A DNA stretch of 64,000 nucleotides from an uncultured Candidatus Saccharibacteria bacterium. GTDB lineage: Bacteria > Patescibacteriota > Minisyncoccia > Phycocordibacterales > UBA2100. The stretch's first letter is position 1; each line of letters starts with the position of its first letter. The notes beneath the pieces were generated by a model. That model searched no databases and had not been told where the DNA came from. It was given only the letters and a program-made list of their open reading frames with translations. The translations under genes and the position numbers were made by a program. Below are positions 2,882-24,997 of this stretch, piece by piece. The stretch spans positions 19,150 to 83,149 of the forward strand of contig CAZQMS010000005.1 of the NCBI GenBank assembly GCA_964594735.1, in the 5' to 3' direction.

Positions 2882-2953
2882 AACAGCAATGAGAACATGG
2901 CAGAAAGATGTGGAAAAAGCGCGAAATAGTGGTACATTTCCTCTGTTCTAGAC

Positions 2954-3025
2954 GCTCTCGTCGTTCAATGGATAGGACGCATCCTTGCGGAGGATGTAAT
3001 GTAGGTTCGATTCCTACCGAGAGCA
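2954..3025 (+). tRNA. tRNA-Arg, anticodon GCG (unusual; A34 would normally be expected)
   Basis: Hand-folded cloverleaf: acceptor GCTCTCG/CGAGAGC (7/7), D-stem GTTC/GGAC with loop AATGGATA (A20 present), anticodon stem CATCC/GGATG with loop TTGCGGA, T-arm GTAGG-TTCGATT-CCTAC, discriminator A. Followed directly by a terminator. Confidence 0.7.
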
Positions 3026-3035
3026 CACGTCAAAA

Positions 3036-3068
3036 AGAAACAGCCCCGTTCGGGGCCGTTTCTTTTTG
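3036..3068. terminator. bidirectional rho-independent terminator shared by the tRNA-Arg (+) and rpsT (-)
   Basis: GAAACAGCCCCG-TT-CGGGGCCGTTTC hairpin flanked by AAAAAG on the 5' side and TTTTT on the 3' side. Confidence 0.8.
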
Positions 3069-3074
3069 AGGGGT

Positions 3075-3341
3075 TTATTTCGTGAGGGCACCCACTCGCT
3101 TCGAAACGCGAGATTTCATCCGCGCTGCGGTGTTGGGTTTGATGGTTCCGTTTTTGGCGGCCTTATCTATCGCCTGGTAGAGGTCGGGCAGCGCCTTTGC
3201 TGCCTCGGCTCCGTTTTTGGCGGCGACCATTTTCTCCACCTGCTTGAGGGTGTCTTTCATCGCCTTTTTGAGGCGCGCATTGAAAACGCGGCGCTTCTCC
3301 GCCACGCGCTGTGCCTTTTTAGCTGAGCTCGTATTTGCCAT
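3075..3341 (-). CDS. rpsT: 30S ribosomal protein S20
   Basis: MANTSSAKKAQRV...ARLKKAMK... gives the typical S20 N-terminus and length (88 aa). Confidence 0.9.
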   Translation of the reverse strand: MANTSSAKKAQRVAEKRRVFNARLKKAMKDTLKQVEKMVAAKNGAEAAKALPDLYQAIDKAAKNGTIKPNTAARMKSRVSKRVGALTK

Positions 3342-3405
3342 GTCACGAGATACTACGATACTTCCCCGCTCTTAGCAAGATTCGGCCAGTGCTATGATTG
3401 AAGCC

Positions 3406-3972
3406 ATGATTGGCTACATCCGCGGTACCGTGCACGCCGTCCGTCCTGCCTTTCTCATCGTGGATGCCCAGGGTGTCGGGTACAAGGTCTTCACGCTCAA
3501 GGAGACGCTCGCCCGGGCCAAGGAGGGCACCTGGGGTTTCTGGACACACCTGGCTGTCCGCGAAGACGCGCTCGATCTCTATGGCTTCACCGACGAGGAG
3601 GAGCTCCGCTTCTTCGAGCTACTTCTCACGGTCTCCGGTATCGGCCCTCGCTCGGCGCTCGGAATACTCGACATCGCGTCCGTCGAGACGCTCAAATCAG
3701 CCATAGGTGCTGGCAACGCCGGGTACCTCACCAATGTCTCGGGTATCGGCAAGAAGACGGCAGAAAAAATCGTGCTCGAACTCAAAGACAAAGTAAAAGG
3801 CGGCGAGTTCTCCTCGGCAGGCGCGCTCAAGGGCGACGAAGAAGCACTCGAAGCGATGCGCAGCCTCGGATACAGCGCCGCAGAGGCGCGCGATGTGCTG
3901 CGCAAAGTCCCGCCCGAAGTCGAAAGTGGAAGCGCCCGATTGCGTGAGGCACTCAAGCTGCTCGGGCGGTAA
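3406..3972 (+). CDS. ruvA: Holliday junction DNA helicase RuvA
   Basis: MIGYIRGTV...GVGYKVF...SGIGPRSALGIL match the RuvA family. The track start is 3394, but the second ATG at 3406 gives the canonical MIG-R/Y N-terminus and leaves TATGAT 7 nt upstream. Confidence 0.9.
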   Translation: MIGYIRGTVHAVRPAFLIVDAQGVGYKVFTLKETLARAKEGTWGFWTHLAVREDALDLYGFTDEEELRFFELLLTVSGIGPRSALGILDIASVETLKSAIGAGNAGYLTNVSGIGKKTAEKIVLELKDKVKGGEFSSAGALKGDEEALEAMRSLGYSAAEARDVLRKVPPEVESGSARLREALKLLGR

Positions 3973-6809: not shown

Positions 6810-7154
6810 ATGCTTTCCCTCTTCCCCGACCTCCTCTTCCTCGCACCGTTTTCCGCACTCGCTCTGCGCGTTGCCCTCGCGGCACTTCTCGCGCTCACCG
6901 CCTGGAGACATGTCTCAGAGCCTCAGAACCTCGCGCGAGCGTGGGCGATTCTGGAGATCGCGGCGGCTGTTGCCATCTTCGTCGGCGCCTGGACGCAGGC
7001 AGCCGCGCTCGCGGCAGCGGTGTGGCTCTTCGCAAGCCTCTTTGTGAAAGAGATGCGCGCGTTCCCCAAGAGCACGGCCGTGCTCGCCATCATCATCGCG
7101 CTCTCACTCGTCGTCACAGGTCCTGGTCCGTTTTCTTTCGATTTACCACTCTAA
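6810..7154 (+). CDS. small DoxX-like membrane protein
   Basis: 114 aa with 3-4 hydrophobic helices; TATACT lies 7 nt upstream of the ATG. Confidence 0.45.
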   Translation: MLSLFPDLLFLAPFSALALRVALAALLALTAWRHVSEPQNLARAWAILEIAAAVAIFVGAWTQAAALAAAVWLFASLFVKEMRAFPKSTAVLAIIIALSLVVTGPGPFSFDLPL

Positions 7155-7194
7155 GTCTCGCGTTTCCAAGACTGAGTGTTATATTTCCGTCTAA

Positions 7195-7267
7195 CCGCCC
7201 GTAGCTCAGTCGGTAGAGCACCTGCCTTTTAAGCAGAGGGTCGTTGGTTCGATTCCAACCGGGCGGA
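7195..7267 (+). tRNA. tRNA-Lys (anticodon UUU)
   Basis: Cloverleaf: CCGCCCG acceptor, GCTC-AGTCGGTA-GAGC D-arm, anticodon loop CTTTTAA, T-arm GTTGG-TTCGATT-CCAAC; closely similar to E. coli tRNA-Lys. Confidence 0.9.
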
Positions 7268-7292
7268 CACGAGCAAAGCGAGAGCCGCCCGA

Positions 7293-7312
7293 GCAATGTG
7301 CCTGCGCACATT
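7293..7312 (+). terminator. hairpin CAATGTGC-CTGC-GCACATTG downstream of tRNA-Lys
   Basis: Perfect 8-bp stem; weak U-tract (CGTGTT). Confidence 0.35.
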
Positions 7313-7328
7313 GCGTGTTGGAATCGAA

Positions 7329-7399
7329 CGGCGGAGCGATGCCGAGCCAGTAGACGAGGCCGCGAGCCGGTGCCCAGCCCGAGTCGAGCGACGGCGAGG
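7329..7399. repeat. copy 1 of a dispersed ~70-nt intergenic repeat (second copy at 43026-43098)
   Basis: CGGCGGAGCGATGCCGAGCCAGTAGACGAGGCCGCGAGCCGGTGCCCAG...GCGACGGCGAGG is about 85% identical to the copy at 43 kb. Confidence 0.5.
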
Positions 7400-7435
7400 T
7401 GAGAGGCGCGGGCGATTCCTATATACTTAACAATT

Positions 7436-8200
7436 ATGGACATTCTCCAGGCAATACTACTCGGCATCATCGAAGGCCTCACGGAGTTCTTGCCCGTCTC
7501 TTCGACCGGTCACCTCATTCTCGCCACGGAACTCCTCGGCATCCCGCAGACTGACGTGGTCAAGAGTTTCAATATCGCCATCCAGCTCGGGGCGATTTGC
7601 GCCGTTGTCGCGCTCTATTTCAAATCATTCTTTGATATCGAACTTCTCAAGAAACTCTTCATCGGCTTTCTCCCCACGGGCATCTTGGGCTTTCTCCTCT
7701 ACCCTTTTATCAAGGGTTACTTGCTGGGCAACCCCATGATTGTGGTGGCCGCGCTCTTCGTCGGCGGCATCGCACTTCTCGTATTTGAATATTTTTACCG
7801 ATCCTCAGAAGTGCAATCGGGTATTTCAGACATCACGTACGGTCAAGCTGTGGTCGTCGGTCTTTTCCAATCTGTCGCGATGATTCCCGGCGTATCGCGC
7901 TCCGCGGCGACGATTGTCGGCGGCCTGCTCGCAGGGATTCCACGTGGAACAATCGTCGAATTCTCCTTTCTCCTCGCAGTACCTACCATGCTCGCCGCAA
8001 CTGGCTACGACATTATGAAAAGTGCCAATCTCTTTTCAGCATCAGATGCAGTGGTACTTTTCGTCGGCTTCATCGTCTCGTTTGCTGTTGCGCTCCTCTC
8101 GATGCACGCACTCATCAGCTTTGTGCGCTCGCACACATTTGTACCATTCGGCATCTACCGCATAGTCCTCGCCGCGGTATTTTTCCTCGTTGTACTCTAA
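7436..8200 (+). CDS. uppP: undecaprenyl-diphosphatase
   Basis: MDILQAILLGIIEGLTEFLPVSSTGHL is the canonical UppP/BacA N-terminus; TATACT lies 8 nt upstream. Confidence 0.9.
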   Translation: MDILQAILLGIIEGLTEFLPVSSTGHLILATELLGIPQTDVVKSFNIAIQLGAICAVVALYFKSFFDIELLKKLFIGFLPTGILGFLLYPFIKGYLLGNPMIVVAALFVGGIALLVFEYFYRSSEVQSGISDITYGQAVVVGLFQSVAMIPGVSRSAATIVGGLLAGIPRGTIVEFSFLLAVPTMLAATGYDIMKSANLFSASDAVVLFVGFIVSFAVALLSMHALISFVRSHTFVPFGIYRIVLAAVFFLVVL

Positions 8201-16536: not shown

Positions 16537-17550
16537 ATGACCGACACTCCCGATACTCCCCAAAAGTCCCCCCGCAGCCTCGACCAGGCACTTCGCCCTG
16601 AGTCGTGGAAGGAATACATTGGCCAAGAGGCCATCAAGGAAAATCTCCGCATCCTCCTCACCGCCGCCAAGAGCCGCAACCATCAGCCCGAGCACGTCCT
16701 CCTCTATGGCCCGCCGGGCCTCGGCAAGACGACGCTCTCACACCTCATGGCCAAAGAGATAGGCGCGAGCCTCAAAAGCACGTCGGGACCCGCTATCGAG
16801 CGCGTGGGCGACCTCGCCTCCATCCTCACCAATCTCTCACCGGGTGACGTCCTCTTTATAGATGAAATTCACCGCCTCAATCGCACGATTGAAGAAGTCC
16901 TCTACCCCGCCATGGAAGCGGGCGTGCTCGATATCGTCATCGGCAAAGGTCCGGCAGCGCGCACGGTGCAGCTCGAGCTGCCTCCATTCACGCTCATCGC
17001 CGCGACGACGCGCATCTCGATGCTCTCCGCGCCGCTTCGCTCGCGCTTCTCAGGCGGCACATTCCGCCTCCAGTACTACACCGATGCGGCGATAGCAGAA
17101 ATCCTCCGCCGCTCGGCAAAAATTCTCGGCATCGAGATAGACGCGGATTCGCTCATGGAAATTGCACGGCGCTCTCGCGCGACGCCGCGCACCGCCAACT
17201 ATCTTTTGAAGCGCGCACGCGACTTCGCGTCGGTAAACGAAGAAACATTACACCTCAAGACCGTGAAGAAAGCGCTCGCGCTGCTCGAGATAGATGAAAT
17301 GGGACTCAACCAAACCGACCGCGACATCCTCACGCTCCTATGCGAGAAGTTCAACGGTGGCCCGGTGGGCCTGAAAACAATTGCAGCCGCGCTTTCCGAA
17401 GAAGAAGCGACGATAGAAGAGGTCAACGAGCCCTACCTCATGCAAACGGGCCTCATCGAGCGGACTCCGCGCGGCCGAACGGTCACGAAGAAGGGCTACG
17501 CACACTTGGGCTTCGACAAATCGGGCTCTTCGCAAGCAAAGCTCATGTAG
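16537..17550 (+). CDS. ruvB: Holliday junction DNA helicase RuvB
   Basis: LLYGPPGLGKTTL Walker A, FIDEIHRL, and a RuvB C-terminal winged-helix domain; the start is trimmed to the ATG at 16537. Confidence 0.9.
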   Translation: MTDTPDTPQKSPRSLDQALRPESWKEYIGQEAIKENLRILLTAAKSRNHQPEHVLLYGPPGLGKTTLSHLMAKEIGASLKSTSGPAIERVGDLASILTNLSPGDVLFIDEIHRLNRTIEEVLYPAMEAGVLDIVIGKGPAARTVQLELPPFTLIAATTRISMLSAPLRSRFSGGTFRLQYYTDAAIAEILRRSAKILGIEIDADSLMEIARRSRATPRTANYLLKRARDFASVNEETLHLKTVKKALALLEIDEMGLNQTDRDILTLLCEKFNGGPVGLKTIAAALSEEEATIEEVNEPYLMQTGLIERTPRGRTVTKKGYAHLGFDKSGSSQAKLM

Positions 17551-17667
17551 TTGCGGCTTCATTTGCCAAGGAGTAGTGTTGCATCGGACAATAGTGTCCG
17601 AGAGGGTTCAAGGACCCGCGCCCCAAGGGGCTAGGAGCCAAGGCTCCGAAACTCAGAGGAGGTTACA

Positions 17668-18240
17668 GTGGCATCAGACTTCCGCGTCAATTCAATTCAC
17701 GAGGATAGAATCAAGAATCTTGGCCAGCAAATGGACTCGCTGCGCGAAGCTTTCTGGACTGCCGCCCGAGAGAAAAACGACGCCGTGGCCGCAGCTCTGT
17801 TGGAGGGCTTGTTGCAGAAGTGCCAAGAGTTCTCTGACGATCCGCTGGTACGTATCTATTGCAGGGGGGACACTGCGAAGAAACTGTTGCTTGAATTCAT
17901 AGAAAAAAGCGGTTACGACCCGATGGTCGTGCCAATCACCGCCCAAAAACTCTGCGACGCCGTCGTGTCATGCTGGATCGAAGTGGCGGGCACCTACGAT
18001 CATGATTTTCACGGCGCAATCGCATGCGCGGGATTGACCGCAAGTGAGGTTGCATTGCTCATGGCGAAGTCCGTCAGGGCGCACGTCGGCAAATACACAC
18101 ACGCTATACGTGAATGGCGGTTCGTCCGCCACTACAAGGGAACGGTACCCGATGCCGTCATACGCGTACTCGCACATTCCATCGTGCGGAAGAGTGACGG
18201 CGCAGAGGTACTCGCCATGTTAAAGGCACACGCGGCATAG
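17668..18240 (+). CDS. hypothetical protein (cassette A downstream of ruvB)
   Basis: 190 aa with no known motif. GTG start with GAGGAGG 5 nt upstream, which is unlike most genes here. Confidence 0.5.
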   Translation: MASDFRVNSIHEDRIKNLGQQMDSLREAFWTAAREKNDAVAAALLEGLLQKCQEFSDDPLVRIYCRGDTAKKLLLEFIEKSGYDPMVVPITAQKLCDAVVSCWIEVAGTYDHDFHGAIACAGLTASEVALLMAKSVRAHVGKYTHAIREWRFVRHYKGTVPDAVIRVLAHSIVRKSDGAEVLAMLKAHAA

Positions 18241-18256
18241 ACTGGTGCGGATGCAA

Positions 18257-18293
18257 CGGCCGGTGGGAGCAATCCCCCCGGCCGTGACTTTTT
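18257..18293 (+). terminator. rho-independent terminator ending cassette A
   Basis: CGGCCGGTGGGA-GCAA-TCCCCCCGGCCG (12 bp with 1 mismatch) followed by TGACTTTTTAT. Confidence 0.65.
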
Positions 18294-18295
18294 AT

Positions 18296-18372
18296 GCGGC
18301 CGCACCGTGACCGACAAGGGCTATAAGCACTTGGGTTTTGAGAAACCAGGGCAACAAAAGATCATCGATTGA
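18296..18372 (+). repeat. decayed copy of the ruvB 3' end (remnant 1)
   Basis: Translates in frame as RTVTDKGYKHLGFEKPGQQKIID*, compared with the RuvB C-terminus RTVTKKGYAHLGFDKSGSSQAKLM*. Confidence 0.65.
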
Positions 18373-18425
18373 CGCGAGCCTCCTGCTTGCGCAGAATGCC
18401 GCGAGTTCATAGAAGGGAGGCTTCC

Positions 18426-19316
18426 ATGGCCGCAACATACGCGCGGGACATGCGACTGATTCAGGCGGCCGTCGAAGCAATCGACAAGGCACAGCTCACG
18501 GAATCCATACGGCATGTACTGGGGAAATTCCGTGTCGAATCGATTCAGCTTCAGCTCCGCAAGTTGCCCGTAATTCACGTGAGCAACGAAGTGGTGTACG
18601 GGAGAGAGCACCCGATCTCTGTCGTGTCGGGAGAAGCGAGCATCTACACGCATAGCTGCACGGTCTTCGCGCCGGGGCTCGCACGGCGCCGTTCGCACGG
18701 CTTCGGACTCAACCTGTCAGTGCTCGAAGTGGTGGTGCATGAAGTCACGCACCGCATCTCGGGAGAACGCGTGGCAAAGGGTACGCATATCGACGGTGGC
18801 GCTCAGTACAAAACCACGCGCTACCACAATGGTCTTCGTGAATCGCTGATCGTGGATGGTATGGAGGCTATCGAAAACAACATCATGCTCAACGAGGGGG
18901 TGACGCAGTATTTTGCACTCGAAGTCATGCGTGAGTACCTGCGTCGCGGCTGGTACATGCAGGTCTCAAAGCCGGAAGTCGGTATGTACTTCGAGCAGGT
19001 TGAGCGCGGCGTCCGCGGCGCGTTTTATCCGGCAGCAGTCACCTACGTGGAGGCTCTCGCGAAACGTCTCGCACAGCCACTTGGATCGCGAGAAAAGGCG
19101 TACCACCGCCTTTTGCGCGCATACTTCCGTGCGGAACCAATCCTGCACGACAAGGAGTGGCGTGAGCTGTTGGTAGCGTCGGGAGTCTACGGCATCCTCA
19201 AGAGGGCACGCGGCGCAAGACACCGCGACCTTGCAGGCTTCACCACCCAGATCGCCAGCGGCATGATTGACCGCGGCGTGTGGGAAAGCATCGAGACCGA
19301 AGAAGTGCCGGTTTGA
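18426..19316 (+). CDS. putative HExxH zinc metallopeptidase (cassette B)
   Basis: VVHEVTHRI (HExxH) followed by IMLNEGVTQYFA, which resembles the gluzincin WLNEG third-ligand motif. GGGAGG lies 5 nt upstream of the ATG. Confidence 0.5.
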   Translation: MAATYARDMRLIQAAVEAIDKAQLTESIRHVLGKFRVESIQLQLRKLPVIHVSNEVVYGREHPISVVSGEASIYTHSCTVFAPGLARRRSHGFGLNLSVLEVVVHEVTHRISGERVAKGTHIDGGAQYKTTRYHNGLRESLIVDGMEAIENNIMLNEGVTQYFALEVMREYLRRGWYMQVSKPEVGMYFEQVERGVRGAFYPAAVTYVEALAKRLAQPLGSREKAYHRLLRAYFRAEPILHDKEWRELLVASGVYGILKRARGARHRDLAGFTTQIASGMIDRGVWESIETEEVPV

Positions 19317-19337
19317 AGCGCGTTCTTTCACCGAAAG

Positions 19338-19375
19338 CGGCCGGCGGGAGCAATCCCACCGGCCGTGACTTTTTA
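19338..19375 (+). terminator. rho-independent terminator ending cassette B
   Basis: CGGCCGGCGGGA-GCAA-TCCCACCGGCCG followed by TGACTTTTTAT; a near-identical copy of the element at 18257. Confidence 0.65.
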
Positions 19376-19376
19376 T

Positions 19377-19450
19377 GCGGCCGCACCGTGACCGACAAAG
19401 GCTACGCCCACCTTGGTATAGAGCACCAGCGGAACAATAGTTTATTTTGA
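19377..19450 (+). repeat. decayed copy of the ruvB 3' end (remnant 2)
   Basis: Translates as RTVTDKGYAHLGIEHQRNNSLF*; the 70 nt 19335-19404 are about 94% identical to 18254-18323. Confidence 0.65.
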
Positions 19451-19645
19451 ACTTAAGAATTCCTTTTAAAAGCTTATAAATTCTACTTTGTTATGGGTCT
19501 TAAAAAAACTCTACTTAAGCCATTATATGAGCTTCTTGAGTTTGCTTCTAACGGGAGCTGGGCGCGGGCGGGGCGAGATGGCGGTGGGGATAAGAGGAGG
19601 GCCCGCGGTGAAGAGGCGCGTACAATAGGTGCACACGCACGGTAG

Positions 19646-19677
19646 CGAAAGAGGTCTCCTTTCGGAGACCTCTTTCG
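19646..19677 (+). other. perfect 14-bp inverted repeat (CGAAAGAGGTCTCC-TTTC-GGAGACCTCTTTCG) in a 600-nt non-coding stretch
   Basis: Seen directly; followed by a U-rich stretch TTCTCGG. Possible sRNA terminator or structured RNA. Confidence 0.4.
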
Positions 19678-20059
19678 TTCTCGGCCATTTCGGATTGATG
19701 GTGGGCAAAGTCCGCCTTGATACGATCTCCACGTACTTCCCCCAACACCTCAATGCTCTGACCGACTGTTCCCGCATTAGTCGCAAACTTGCGCATGGAC
19801 TCATCCGGGGAACTTGCTCCCTCGGGCAGACACGTTTCCGTGGGACCCGGGGAACCGACCGACGCACGGTAAGGCGCATCGATAAGAGAAATGTACATCA
19901 CGAAAAAATGCGCAATTTTAATGAAAAGGACAACTTCGGGGGAATACGAGTGGACAAGTATGTGGATATGGCTGTGCACAAACCCTGCTTTACGCTGGGG
20001 ATAGGCGTGATTCACTGAAACAAGTGAGGGGTAGAGCCCCCAATGGAGGAGGTGCTGCG

Positions 20060-20338
20060 ATGCCAGCGAACGCGTCAGAAGATTTCCACAAGCAGCTCGA
20101 GGGGTACGGGCTGACCACCGCGAGCATTCTCTATCGGATGCCCGACCATCGTGCCCTCCTCCAGACGTACATCTGGCAAGAATACGACCTCTTCCCAAAA
20201 TTCCCGGAGCTGAAGAAGTTCCTCGAGTTCTGGCGGGCGAACCTCGACGGGCCGCTCCACTCGGTGCAAGTCGCGCACACCAAGCTCATCAAACCCGTGG
20301 AGCTCAAGCTCGTCGGCAGCGAATTCCGATTGCACTGA
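20060..20338 (+). CDS. Usg-like family protein (PF06233-like, recalled from memory)
   Basis: LEGYGLTTASILYRMPDHRALLQTYIWQEYDLFPKFPELKKFLEFWRANLDGPLHSV matches my memory of Usg proteins. GGAGGAGG lies 7 nt upstream. Confidence 0.5.
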   Translation: MPANASEDFHKQLEGYGLTTASILYRMPDHRALLQTYIWQEYDLFPKFPELKKFLEFWRANLDGPLHSVQVAHTKLIKPVELKLVGSEFRLH

Positions 20339-24607: not shown

Positions 24608-24997
24608 TCAACGTAAAACGGCCGACGACCAACACGAGTGCTTGGATGCAGATTTTAGATGTTTGCTGAAACCACCAAGTTGTCGCGATAATTCCTCACA
24701 ATCTGCTCGAATTTCACCGAGCTGCTCGTCCGTTATCAAATTCTCGCGTCGAGCGATCTCGCACGCTGCCATGGACTCGTTAATGGAGCCCAATGCAATG
24801 GTGACGTACCGATTGAAATCCTTATCAGAGCTCTTTGCTGAGCCCTCGGCAATGTTTAAAGCCACGGACAGGGAGCTTCGTCGCACTTGATCGGTAAGAT
24901 ACTGAAATTCGCGGGGGAATGATCTGGTTACAGCAACGATTTTCGAATGGAAACGAATACCATCCTGGTAGATCTTCACTTCTCGAAACCGAAACAT
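24608..24997 (-). CDS. four-helix-bundle protein (TIGR02436; the so-called 23S rRNA intervening-sequence protein family)
   Basis: FRFREVKIYQ...F.SKIV.VTRSFP...LTDQVRRSSLSVALNIAEGSAK...F.RYVTIALGSINE. Confidence 0.7.
   Translation of the reverse strand: MFRFREVKIYQDGIRFHSKIVAVTRSFPREFQYLTDQVRRSSLSVALNIAEGSAKSSDKDFNRYVTIALGSINESMAACEIARRENLITDEQLGEIRADCEELSRQLGGFSKHLKSASKHSCWSSAVLR

Follow-up and report, generated by a model that had tools for sequence, protein, structure and literature searches.

Downstream of the ruvB gene of an uncultured, Kaiserbacteria-like CPR bacterium we found two unrelated single genes, with a terminator hairpin and a remnant ruvB tail after each of them. On balance, we favor the view that the last 80 nt of ruvB, an essential repair gene, have served at least twice as the docking point for single-gene pieces of ~1 kb, with the old gene ends kept as a record of the events. 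The genomes of CPR bacteria (Patescibacteria) are very small, and the ways in which these bacteria acquire genes are poorly understood; should the mechanism prove general, it would represent a compact route for gene gain in streamlined, uncultured bacteria, and displaced ruvB tails would offer a practical marker for recent acquisitions. The weight of these points is limited in that this is so far a single case.

The order of elements in the window (the whole 64,000-nt stretch of DNA that was analyzed) is ruvB, ORF1, hairpin with T-tail, displaced ruvB tail copy 1, ORF2, hairpin with tail, and displaced ruvB tail copy 2, all on the forward strand, and then a spacer. The target gene is intact: ruvB (16537-17550) is full length, carries all three Pfam domains (RuvB_N, AAA_lid_4, and RuvB_C), ends in its current tail TKKGYAHLGFDKSGSSQAKLM before the stop codon, and is 84.5% identical at the nucleotide level to L165 and 88% identical at the amino acid level to L003. 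Within it, a 28-nt core (GCGGCCGAACGGTCACGAAGAAGGGCTA, 17471-17498) marks the left limit of homology with both displaced tails in the alignments and takes an attL-like position. The ORF1 leader (17551-17667) contains mini-hairpins at 17585-17600, 17621-17630, and 17634-17647 and the Shine-Dalgarno sequence GAGGAGG, after which ORF1 (17668-18240, 190 aa), a near-orphan, begins with GTG. Hairpin 1 (18257-18284) and its tail form the terminator-like right end of the ORF1 unit (18257-18295) and are followed by copy 1 (18296-18372, in frame from 18298 to 18372). ORF2 (18426-19316), a possible gluzincin-type metallopeptidase with an HExxH motif (HEVTH) and the motif NEGVTQYFALE, is terminated by hairpin 2 (19338-19365) and its tail (together 19338-19376), which share homology with the hairpin that follows the ORF2 homologs in L081 and L082. 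Copy 2 (19377-19450, in frame from 19379 to 19450) is apparently frameshifted near its end. All of the parts named in an earlier, sequence-only reading of this DNA (ruvB, two ORFs, two hairpins, and the tail copies) were recovered in place, including the HExxH motif of ORF2, the length of which is 296 aa and not the 297 aa given there.

To the right of copy 2, a spacer (19451-19584), the first ~100 nt of which are AT-rich, has no homolog in any fetched locus. This spacer occupies the place of genes for a 123-aa YggT-like protein and a 113-aa protein in relatives. It is followed by a conserved, structured-RNA-like block (19585-19965, forward strand) that marks the right border of a variable slot, is present in at least 10 relatives, and shows compensatory changes in 29 of 66 predicted pairs; an Rfam search of the islet and its flanks, this block included, resulted in no match.

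Comparison with related loci points to insertion at this position. The ruvB stop codon is separated from the conserved downstream block by 12 nt in L003 and by 7 nt in L085, which are the empty sites that the sequence-only reading had expected downstream of ruvB, and relative to these relatives the 2-kb islet is, as aligned, an insertion. The occupants of the slot differ in L001, L164, L165, L167, L168, L174, L176, L177, and L082, with close relatives (91-93% RuvB identity) each holding different genes. The anticipated variation in cassettes was therefore observed in every close relative examined, and an invariant two-gene content was not seen. The slot in relatives also holds TA-like genes (L001 has HTH plus Doc, and L165 has a SocA_Panacea protein). 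No displaced ruvB tail was detected by a regex scan of 167 loci outside the window and its own unitigs, no second instance emerged from ~180 ruvB loci or from junction-pattern scans, and no flanking direct repeats were present around the slot cargo of six relatives. In L081 and L082, ORF2 and the hairpin directly follow ruvB without a displaced tail, and by its gene order ORF2 in that lineage looks like an ordinary neighbor.

The two units of the islet share a junction; alignment of the sequences upstream of the hairpins showed no similarity between them. Both hairpins have the form CGGCCGG..CCGGCCG and each is followed by TGACTTTTTAT, with 37 of 39 positions of hairpin plus tail identical between units. 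The adjoining 28-nt core is identical at 27 of 28 positions between copy 1 and copy 2 vs. 21-22 of 28 (75-79%) in comparison with the working ruvB, and the three ruvB tails share this core as their one start (17471, 18296, and 19377). A 38-nt junction (GGCCGTGACTTTTTATGCGGCCGCACCGTGACCGACAA) spanning T-tail and core is the same in both units and occurs exactly twice in the window, where shuffles predict 0 occurrences; the tail peptide motif has three occurrences in the window, and 50 shuffles produced none. As delimited by these alignments, hairpin arm plus core is a sharply bounded 67-nt site. The sequence-only reading had taken the entire 70-nt unit as a copy of the ruvB end, ~94% identical between units and ~75% identical to ruvB. 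We found 65 of 70 positions (93%) identical between units, while the comparison with ruvB holds for the 28-nt core: the last 28 nt of the unit and the sequence beyond are ruvB-like, whereas the first 42 nt (hairpin and tail) have no ruvB counterpart.

Across 174 loci the hairpin was found solely after the ORF2 homologs (L081 and L082) and in the unitig L083 from the islet's own locus, in addition to a match in L036, a Clostridiales contig, that is likely due to chance. The junction pattern TTTTATGCGGCCGNACNGTNACNNNNAARGGNTA returned 0 matches in IMG/VR and 0 in JGI metagenome contigs, and the hairpin-tail pattern returned 0 in IMG/VR. A simple terminator scan left both hairpins uncalled because the T-run begins 5 nt past the stem. 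Two further candidates were rejected: an IS200/IS605-type hairpin element, as there is neither a left-end hairpin nor TnpA/TnpB, and joining via a restriction site (CGGCCG/GCGGCCGC), which had no predictive value for the junction.

The peptide of the genuine ruvB tail is GRTVTKKGYAHLGFDKSGSSQAKLM, that of copy 1 is GRTVTDKGYKHLGFEKPGQQKIID, and that of copy 2 is GRTVTDKGYAHLGIEHQRNNSLF, each ending at a stop codon, and beyond the shared core the three tails are only 55-63% alike. The current tail is nearest to L165 and copy 2 is nearest to L164; the first 46 nt of copy 2 match the end of the working L164 ruvB at 89% identity, and the cores of both copies are 93-96% identical to the core of that gene. 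That the tails are distinct and nearest to different relatives argues for separate origins; judged by these distances they are different alleles and not decayed copies of the resident tail, as the sequence-only reading had described them. The tails are also, on the same comparison, too short and too divergent for their donors to be firmly assigned. Two related ideas were rejected: a current tail foreign to its clade, since the 93%-identical relative P0012 likewise has a TKKGY-type tail, and a chimeric copy 1 made up of L164-like and L082-like parts, for which the divergence among the tails is too great.

Additionally, the working ruvB of L082 ends in TDKGYKHLGFDKPGSGQKKLID before its stop codon; the same spacer comes next and then an ORF2 homolog, an arrangement collinear with copy 1 and ORF2. 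By this alignment, copy 1 was once the end of a functional ruvB and goes with ORF2, the gene on its right. The earlier assignment of each tail copy to the unit on its left consequently falls, the units being out of phase with that division, while the L082 arrangement agrees with the proposal that each arriving piece supplies the gene with a new end and moves the previous end aside. Copy 1 also provides the -35 box of a promoter-like site for ORF2 (TTGACG-17-CAGAAT, 18369-18397), with the stop codon of copy 1 located inside the -35-like box, and the same hexamers and 17-nt spacing are readable in L082. Furthermore, RuvB tails vary freely after ...GY.H.G among 120 homologs, which suggests that replacement of the tail should be tolerated.

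Local tandem duplication could account for part of this picture. The T-tail after ORF2 would have been joined to the ruvB core by one illegitimate event and the segment ruvB tail-ORF2-hairpin duplicated and then triplicated, with the first cargo later swapped for ORF1 and the third copy cut down to a tail stump. Such a single origin would account for the identity of the 38-nt junction between the units, L082 (ruvB-ORF2-hairpin) would represent the presumed starting state, and tandem duplicates amplify readily through unequal crossing-over; however, at least four further events are required, ORF1 and ORF2 are unrelated to each other, and no ORF2 remnant was found upstream of hairpin 1 or past copy 2. 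Moreover, the tails diverge past the core and have different nearest relatives while hairpin plus core are 96% identical, a divergence more uneven than would be expected from simple decay of duplicates, and we regard this explanation as unlikely.

A second concern arises from the source of the sequence, a metagenome-assembled contig, in which strain variants or a free circle of ~1.08 kb might have been threaded into one tandem path via the 38-nt repeat. Two Logan unitigs from run SRR15237806 bear on this: L178 corresponds to window positions 17403-18307 (ruvB end, ORF1, hairpin, and junction) and L083 to positions 18288-19388 (junction, copy 1, ORF2, hairpin, and junction). Both unitigs end at the repeat, and the graph also fits a path of ruvB-ORF1-hairpin joined to copy 2 together with a separate circle of copy 1-ORF2-hairpin, but both junction sequences recur in this second, independent assembly, and typical reads, being longer than the exact 38-nt repeat, would be expected to resolve it. 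The junctions would be real even if the path were not, and the same recombination would be implied; an assembly or strain-mixture artefact is accordingly improbable in our judgment. The GC-rich, palindromic, repeated nature of the 70-nt unit and its terminator-like position after genes would speak for a generic intergenic repeat (a REP- or MITE-like element or a common terminator) that resembles ruvB by chance. This idea is largely refuted, given that only two copies exist in 64 kb, that the hairpin is confined to the few loci listed above, that the ruvB-like part keeps the reading frame until a stop codon is reached, and that copy 1 runs on into a spacer that also occurs at a real ruvB-ORF2 junction.

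Taken together, these results lead us to consider two successive recombinational insertions into the 28-bp core, 80 nt before the ruvB stop codon, somewhat the more probable origin of the islet. The incoming piece would consist of a ruvB tail allele, a short leader or promoter, one gene, the CGGCCGG hairpin, and TGACTTTTTAT, and its simplest form on entry would be circular, with the T-tail abutting the core. Crossover within the core would then give ruvB a new, functional tail, and the old tail would be displaced downstream, behind the terminator of the incoming gene. Two such rounds would yield ruvB with its current tail, ORF1 and hairpin, copy 1, ORF2 and hairpin, and copy 2; the second piece may have entered either the working ruvB or an already displaced tail, and the two events may have occurred in either order. 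A circle would be in keeping with the unitig graph, which does not demonstrate one. The mover may be a recombinase encoded elsewhere, or host homologous recombination with the ruvB body and a displaced tail as arms. By a rough split, we tentatively entertain a site-specific recombinase acting in trans, and still more tentatively homologous recombination after one founding junction.

The sequence-only reading had noted no recombinase in the islet, and partial tests (a motif scan, tblastn searches using XerD and a resolvase as queries, and Pfam analysis of 10 unassigned ORFs) detected no tyrosine or serine recombinase in the whole 64-kb window either. Similarly, no recombinase was detected beside ruvB in the fetched loci by partial tests (tblastn with XerD and a resolvase, and gene calls of close relatives); the sole tblastn match among these loci, L113, is unrelated. 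Nothing relevant on ruvB serving as an att site was found in a search of the literature. Of the serial site-specific insertion proposed initially, insertion is upheld by the empty sites and the variable slot, while site specificity is putative, given that these partial tests detected no recombinase in 64 kb and that no second instance emerged from the ~180 loci.

Among 5.8 billion proteins ORF1 matched only itself, and among 1.84 billion representatives it had one remote homolog, P0125 (E 6e-5). The leader of ORF1 and that of its sole remote homolog (L175) are conserved at ~75-85% of nucleotides and share two compensatory pairs, with the proteins 29% identical; no ruvB tail precedes the gene in L175. 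The codon-position GC pattern of ORF1 resembles that of host genes. ORF2 has two homologs of equal length at ~50% identity, and HE(V/T)TH and NEGVTQYFALE are invariant in the three sequences. Pfam gave a weak, sub-threshold Peptidase_M1 match (E 0.014) covering HExxH alone, a profile search with the ORF2 alignment gave no PDB match, tblastn gave no match in phage or plasmid records, and the AlphaFold2 model from the 3-sequence alignment (pLDDT 36) was unusable. From its motifs, ORF2 is a candidate soluble HExxH/NEG metallopeptidase. Neither ORF1 nor ORF2 had a significant match in Pfam, PHROGs, or NCBIfam, and PADLOC returned 0 hits; these results, together with the occurrence of ORF2 homologs without ORF1 in L081 and L082, speak against the suggestion that the pair forms an accessory, defense, or addiction module. 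By gene content, ORF1 and ORF2 are independent cassettes and not a module.

Several known systems resemble the ruvB islet in part. The tycheposons of Prochlorococcus reportedly have tRNA genes as their targets and code for tyrosine recombinases along with replicative modules. The ruvB islet is like them in having a streamlined genome, a variable island, and cargo segments divided by partial target-gene ends, and unlike them in that neither a tyrosine recombinase nor replicative modules were found at the islet. Integron cassettes (attI/attC) are promoter-poor, single-gene units that each end in an imperfect palindrome, are stacked beside a fixed site, and carry no piece of a target gene. The ruvB units are likewise single-gene, palindrome-ended, and stacked by one site, whereas their hairpin is 28 nt without R''/R' core sites and each cassette carries a target-gene piece. 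In the window there was no intI and no tyrosine recombinase signature, and no GTTRRRY (R''/R') cores were readable at the CGGCCGG...CCGGCCG hairpins. It is only a faint prospect that the ruvB 3' core is a fixed capture site and the hairpin with T-tail a cassette-borne recombination site, such that the hypervariable ruvB-yebC slot of Kaiserbacteria would be the array of an integron-like single-gene capture system in CPR, with a recombinase located elsewhere or of host Xer type.

A study of a small genomic island of E. coli describes RecA-independent movement between short direct repeats without a recombinase of its own (PMC5426353). To that extent the ruvB islet is similar, being small and bounded by short direct repeats with no site-specific recombinase; organism, repeat, and site differ, and what that study reports for the island is deletion and excision and not stacking (PMC5426353). 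In Dehalococcoides, a series of islands lies stacked behind a single essential gene, ssrA, with direct repeats of its 3' end between them and a conserved element-side motif just upstream of each repeat that is not alignable to the target; these islands are multi-gene, many have a serine recombinase (DsiB) module, and dozens of instances exist (PMC3146451). The ruvB islet represents one instance with a protein-gene target and no recombinase found, but it too has an element-side motif (hairpin plus tail) adjoining each target repeat.

Finally, the CIMEs (cis-mobilizable elements) related to ICESt1/ICESt3 at fda of Streptococcus thermophilus provide a case in which elements accrete in tandem at a protein gene's 3' end (reviewed in PMC5704250, citing Pavlovic 2004 and Bellanger 2011). 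CIMEs are without integration genes and are flanked by att-like direct repeats from the target 3' end, the target stays intact, and new pieces join in tandem at the att site that holds the gene end (PMC5704250). The ruvB units differ in being ~0.8-1.1 kb with one gene each, in having a conserved hairpin terminator within the repeat, and in their CPR host; no related integrase-bearing element was present at ruvB in any fetched locus, and the mobility of the ruvB units is putative. Like CIMEs, they are bounded by direct repeats of the target 3' end and arranged in tandem beside an intact target, and by this analogy the recombinase-free cassettes at ruvB resemble integrase-less, att-flanked islets of the CIME type.

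The host belongs to the Patescibacteria (CPR) and is Kaiserbacteria-like: its RuvB shares 88% identity with the protein of L003, a Candidatus Kaiserbacteria MAG, and 91-93% with several RuvBs from metagenomes. As the sequence-only reading had described, two stacked units, each with a hairpin and a ruvB-like tail, lie 3' of ruvB (16537-17550), with small corrections: the second gene, ORF2, is present with its HExxH motif but encodes 296 rather than 297 aa, and only the last 28 nt of the 70-nt unit, together with the sequence beyond it, resemble ruvB. A 117-nt leader separates ruvB from ORF1 (17668-18240), which is followed by the hairpin CGGCCGG...CCGGCCG (18257-18284), the tail TGACTTTTTAT and a 77-nt in-frame ruvB tail (copy 1, 18296-18372). 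A 53-nt spacer then leads to ORF2 (18426-19316), a second hairpin with its tail (19338-19376), a second ruvB tail (copy 2, 19377-19450), a mostly AT-rich 134-nt spacer (19451-19584) and a conserved block starting at 19585. The two hairpin-tail-core units, the core being the 28-nt start of each ruvB tail, are identical at 65 of 70 positions, and a 38-nt stretch over the tail/core junction is the same in both and absent elsewhere in the 64 kb (0 expected by chance). The junction itself is a perfect 10-bp palindrome, TGCGGCCGCA. At copy 1, GGTGCGG 5' of the hairpin can also pair with CCGCACC of the core, extending the stem over the junction (18244-18308; MFE -44.8 kcal/mol, z -3.9), a feature absent at copy 2.

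Within the core, the two displaced copies and the relative L164's working ruvB are mutually 93-96% identical, and the window's own working ruvB is 75-79% identical to these three and nearest to that of L165 (86%). Past the core all comparisons give 52-68%. Copy 2 matches the real ruvB end of L164 at 89% over its first 46 nt, and its last codons appear frameshifted relative to copy 1. Judged by sequence, then, the three tails are different alleles and not, as had been proposed, decayed copies of the resident ruvB end. Tail swapping should do no harm, because RuvB tails vary freely after GY.H.G across 120 homologs; TKKGY-type tails, resembling the window's current one, also occur in the 93%-identical relative P0012.

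Only two ORF2 homologs were found among 5.8 billion proteins, both of the same length and ~50% identical. One of the two, on contig L082, sits immediately 3' of a working ruvB ending ...RTVTDKGYKHLGFDKPGSGQKKLID*, and this stretch is collinear with the window from copy 1 through the spacer into ORF2: the stop codon, the CGC after it, the spacer sequence (TTGCGCAGAATGCCGCGAGT...) and a Shine-Dalgarno site all correspond. This collinearity makes copy 1 the end of a once functional ruvB, carried along with ORF2; it belongs with the gene on its right rather than closing the unit on its left as first read. A promoter-like TTGACG-17-CAGAAT lies 5' of ORF2 (18369-18397), and L082 reads the same at both hexamers and in the distance between them (275-303). 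The -35-like hexamer holds the copy 1 stop codon, which may be why the ruvB tail end stays with ORF2. In L081 and L082, as in the window, the hairpin and its tail come after ORF2; a convergent YggT-like gene stands immediately beyond them, with no displaced tail. In this lineage ORF2 looks like an ordinary ruvB neighbour. HE(V/T)TH and NEGVTQYFALE are invariant in ORF2 and its homologs, which suggests a putative gluzincin-type metallopeptidase; Pfam and PDB profile searches lent this no support.

ORF1 is a near-orphan with a host-like codon-position GC pattern and a strong Shine-Dalgarno site; its one remote homolog (P0125, 29-32% identity) came from 1.84 billion representatives. Its leader (17572-17660) holds three mini-hairpins, GGACA..TGTCC, CCCC-AA-GGGG and GGAGCC-AA-GGCTCC, and is 75-85% conserved, with two compensatory pairs, in the leader of that homolog (contig L175, 52-146), while the proteins behind the two leaders share only 29% identity; the leader may be a cis-regulatory RNA. 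L175 starts AAACTTTTTAT, the same tail as after the L081 hairpin. The idea that the two genes form a defence or addiction module gained no support, since family searches matched neither ORF to a defence or TA family and the two were not found together elsewhere.

We compared the surroundings of RuvB homologs at 80 genome and 80 metagenome loci, together with the contigs of the closest RuvBs. Both empty sites and different occupants, as had been anticipated, were found: the ruvB stop lies 12 nt from the conserved block in L003 and 7 nt in L085, and the remaining close relatives all differ from one another. L001 carries an HTH_17/excisionase-family protein and a Doc/Fic toxin (7067-7795); L165, 81-aa, 148-aa and SocA_Panacea proteins (the last beside the 148-aa gene, 2895-3948) and a 113-aa gene; L167, 206-aa and 115-aa genes; L168, YggT-like 123-aa, 113-aa and GIY-YIG genes; and L174, L176, L177 and L164, further combinations. 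It is notable that TA-like genes of relatives (L001, L165) occupy the same slot. Because these contents all differ, the ruvB-to-yebC interval is a hypervariable slot, with the window's 2 kb one among many occupants. The clade-common 123-aa and 113-aa genes are missing from the window. In most close relatives their place is the one taken here by the 19451-19584 spacer, which opens with ~100 nt of AT-rich sequence, has many 6-bp palindromes (CTTAAG twice, GAATTC, AAGCTT, TTTAAA) and lacks a homolog among the fetched loci. No displaced ruvB tail was seen at any other locus scanned, nor direct repeats flanking slot contents at the other loci examined; so far, the tandem arrangement has no second example.

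The conserved block begins GGGGATAA, or TGGGGATAAG in most relatives, with TACAAT ~26 nt further on. It spans ~300-380 nt (window 19585-19965, plus strand; L003 7002-7310; L165 4513-4890; L167 2927-3290; L168 3812-4190; others) and is conserved in 10 or more Kaiserbacteria-like relatives, in every case with the variable slot on one side and Usg/yebC on the other. RNAalifold on nine sequences predicted 66 pairs, 29 with compensatory changes, and Rfam gave no match even at E<=10; the block probably represents a structured RNA gene that has escaped annotation. Between it and yebC lies a Usg-like gene (PF06233, E 3e-40; 20024-20338, plus strand), present in L168, L174 and L177 and missing from L003 and L001, a second presence/absence polymorphism of the ruvB-yebC-ruvC cluster. 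Further along, between a PBP gene and dnaN, a 129-aa 23S_rRNA_IVP (four-helix-bundle) gene (24608-24997, minus strand) has GC clearly below its neighbours at all codon positions; it is likely one more small gene of acquired origin.

The anatomy reads ruvB 5' part-core-tail(current)-ORF1-hairpin-tail|core-tail(1)-ORF2-hairpin-tail|core-tail(2). Two Campbell-type insertions into the core, each by a circle [core-tail-gene-hairpin-T-tail], would produce it, the second circle entering either the working gene or a displaced copy; such serial insertion is the reading we favour, with modest confidence. Local amplification with later replacement of the cargo is unlikely, given unrelated cargos, tails that are distinct alleles and uneven divergence. 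Less probable still is an assembly or strain-mix effect: the unitig graph alone fits the tandem and a ruvB-ORF1-hairpin|copy 2 arrangement plus a 1.08-kb circle equally well, but the junction sequences are real, since two Logan unitigs of run SRR15237806 recover them independently of the window assembly, L178 reading ruvB end-ORF1-hairpin-junction and L083 junction-copy 1-ORF2-hairpin-junction, both ending at the shared repeat. That the 70-nt unit is a generic repeat is highly improbable, because in the loci scanned the hairpin is confined to the window and the 3' side of ORF2 homologs.

The islet is a real recombination scar, and a neatly legible one, carried by a CPR genome and known from a single instance. 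Several observations speak against a dedicated system: the islet has no recombinase, as first noted, and motif, tblastn and Pfam searches of the 64-kb window gave none; the other fetched loci have no integrase-bearing occupants at ruvB, IMG/VR and JGI contigs hold no further junctions of this pattern, and L081 and L082 lack a displaced tail. Alternatively, a single founding illegitimate junction would suffice, with arms for later homologous recombination between strains provided by the ruvB body, the displaced tail and the hairpin-tail of 39 nt. The junction details point to a defined recombination site, because the junction nucleotide is identical in both units and the 67-nt conserved stretch (96%) is sharply bounded, with similarity of ~63% to its right and none to its left. 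Known systems point, by analogy, the same way. A full-text literature search turned up no precedent for ruvB as a target, and the islet is best filed as a case of integrase-less islets accreting in tandem behind a protein gene, at its 3' end. Dehalococcoides ssrA islands have a conserved element-side motif adjoining each direct repeat (PMC3146451), the same kind of motif as beside the repeats at ruvB, and CIMEs, which are integrase-less att-flanked elements, are established to stack via integration into an attR containing the gene end (PMC5704250), much as the ruvB islet is stacked, integrase-less, at the 3' end of its gene.
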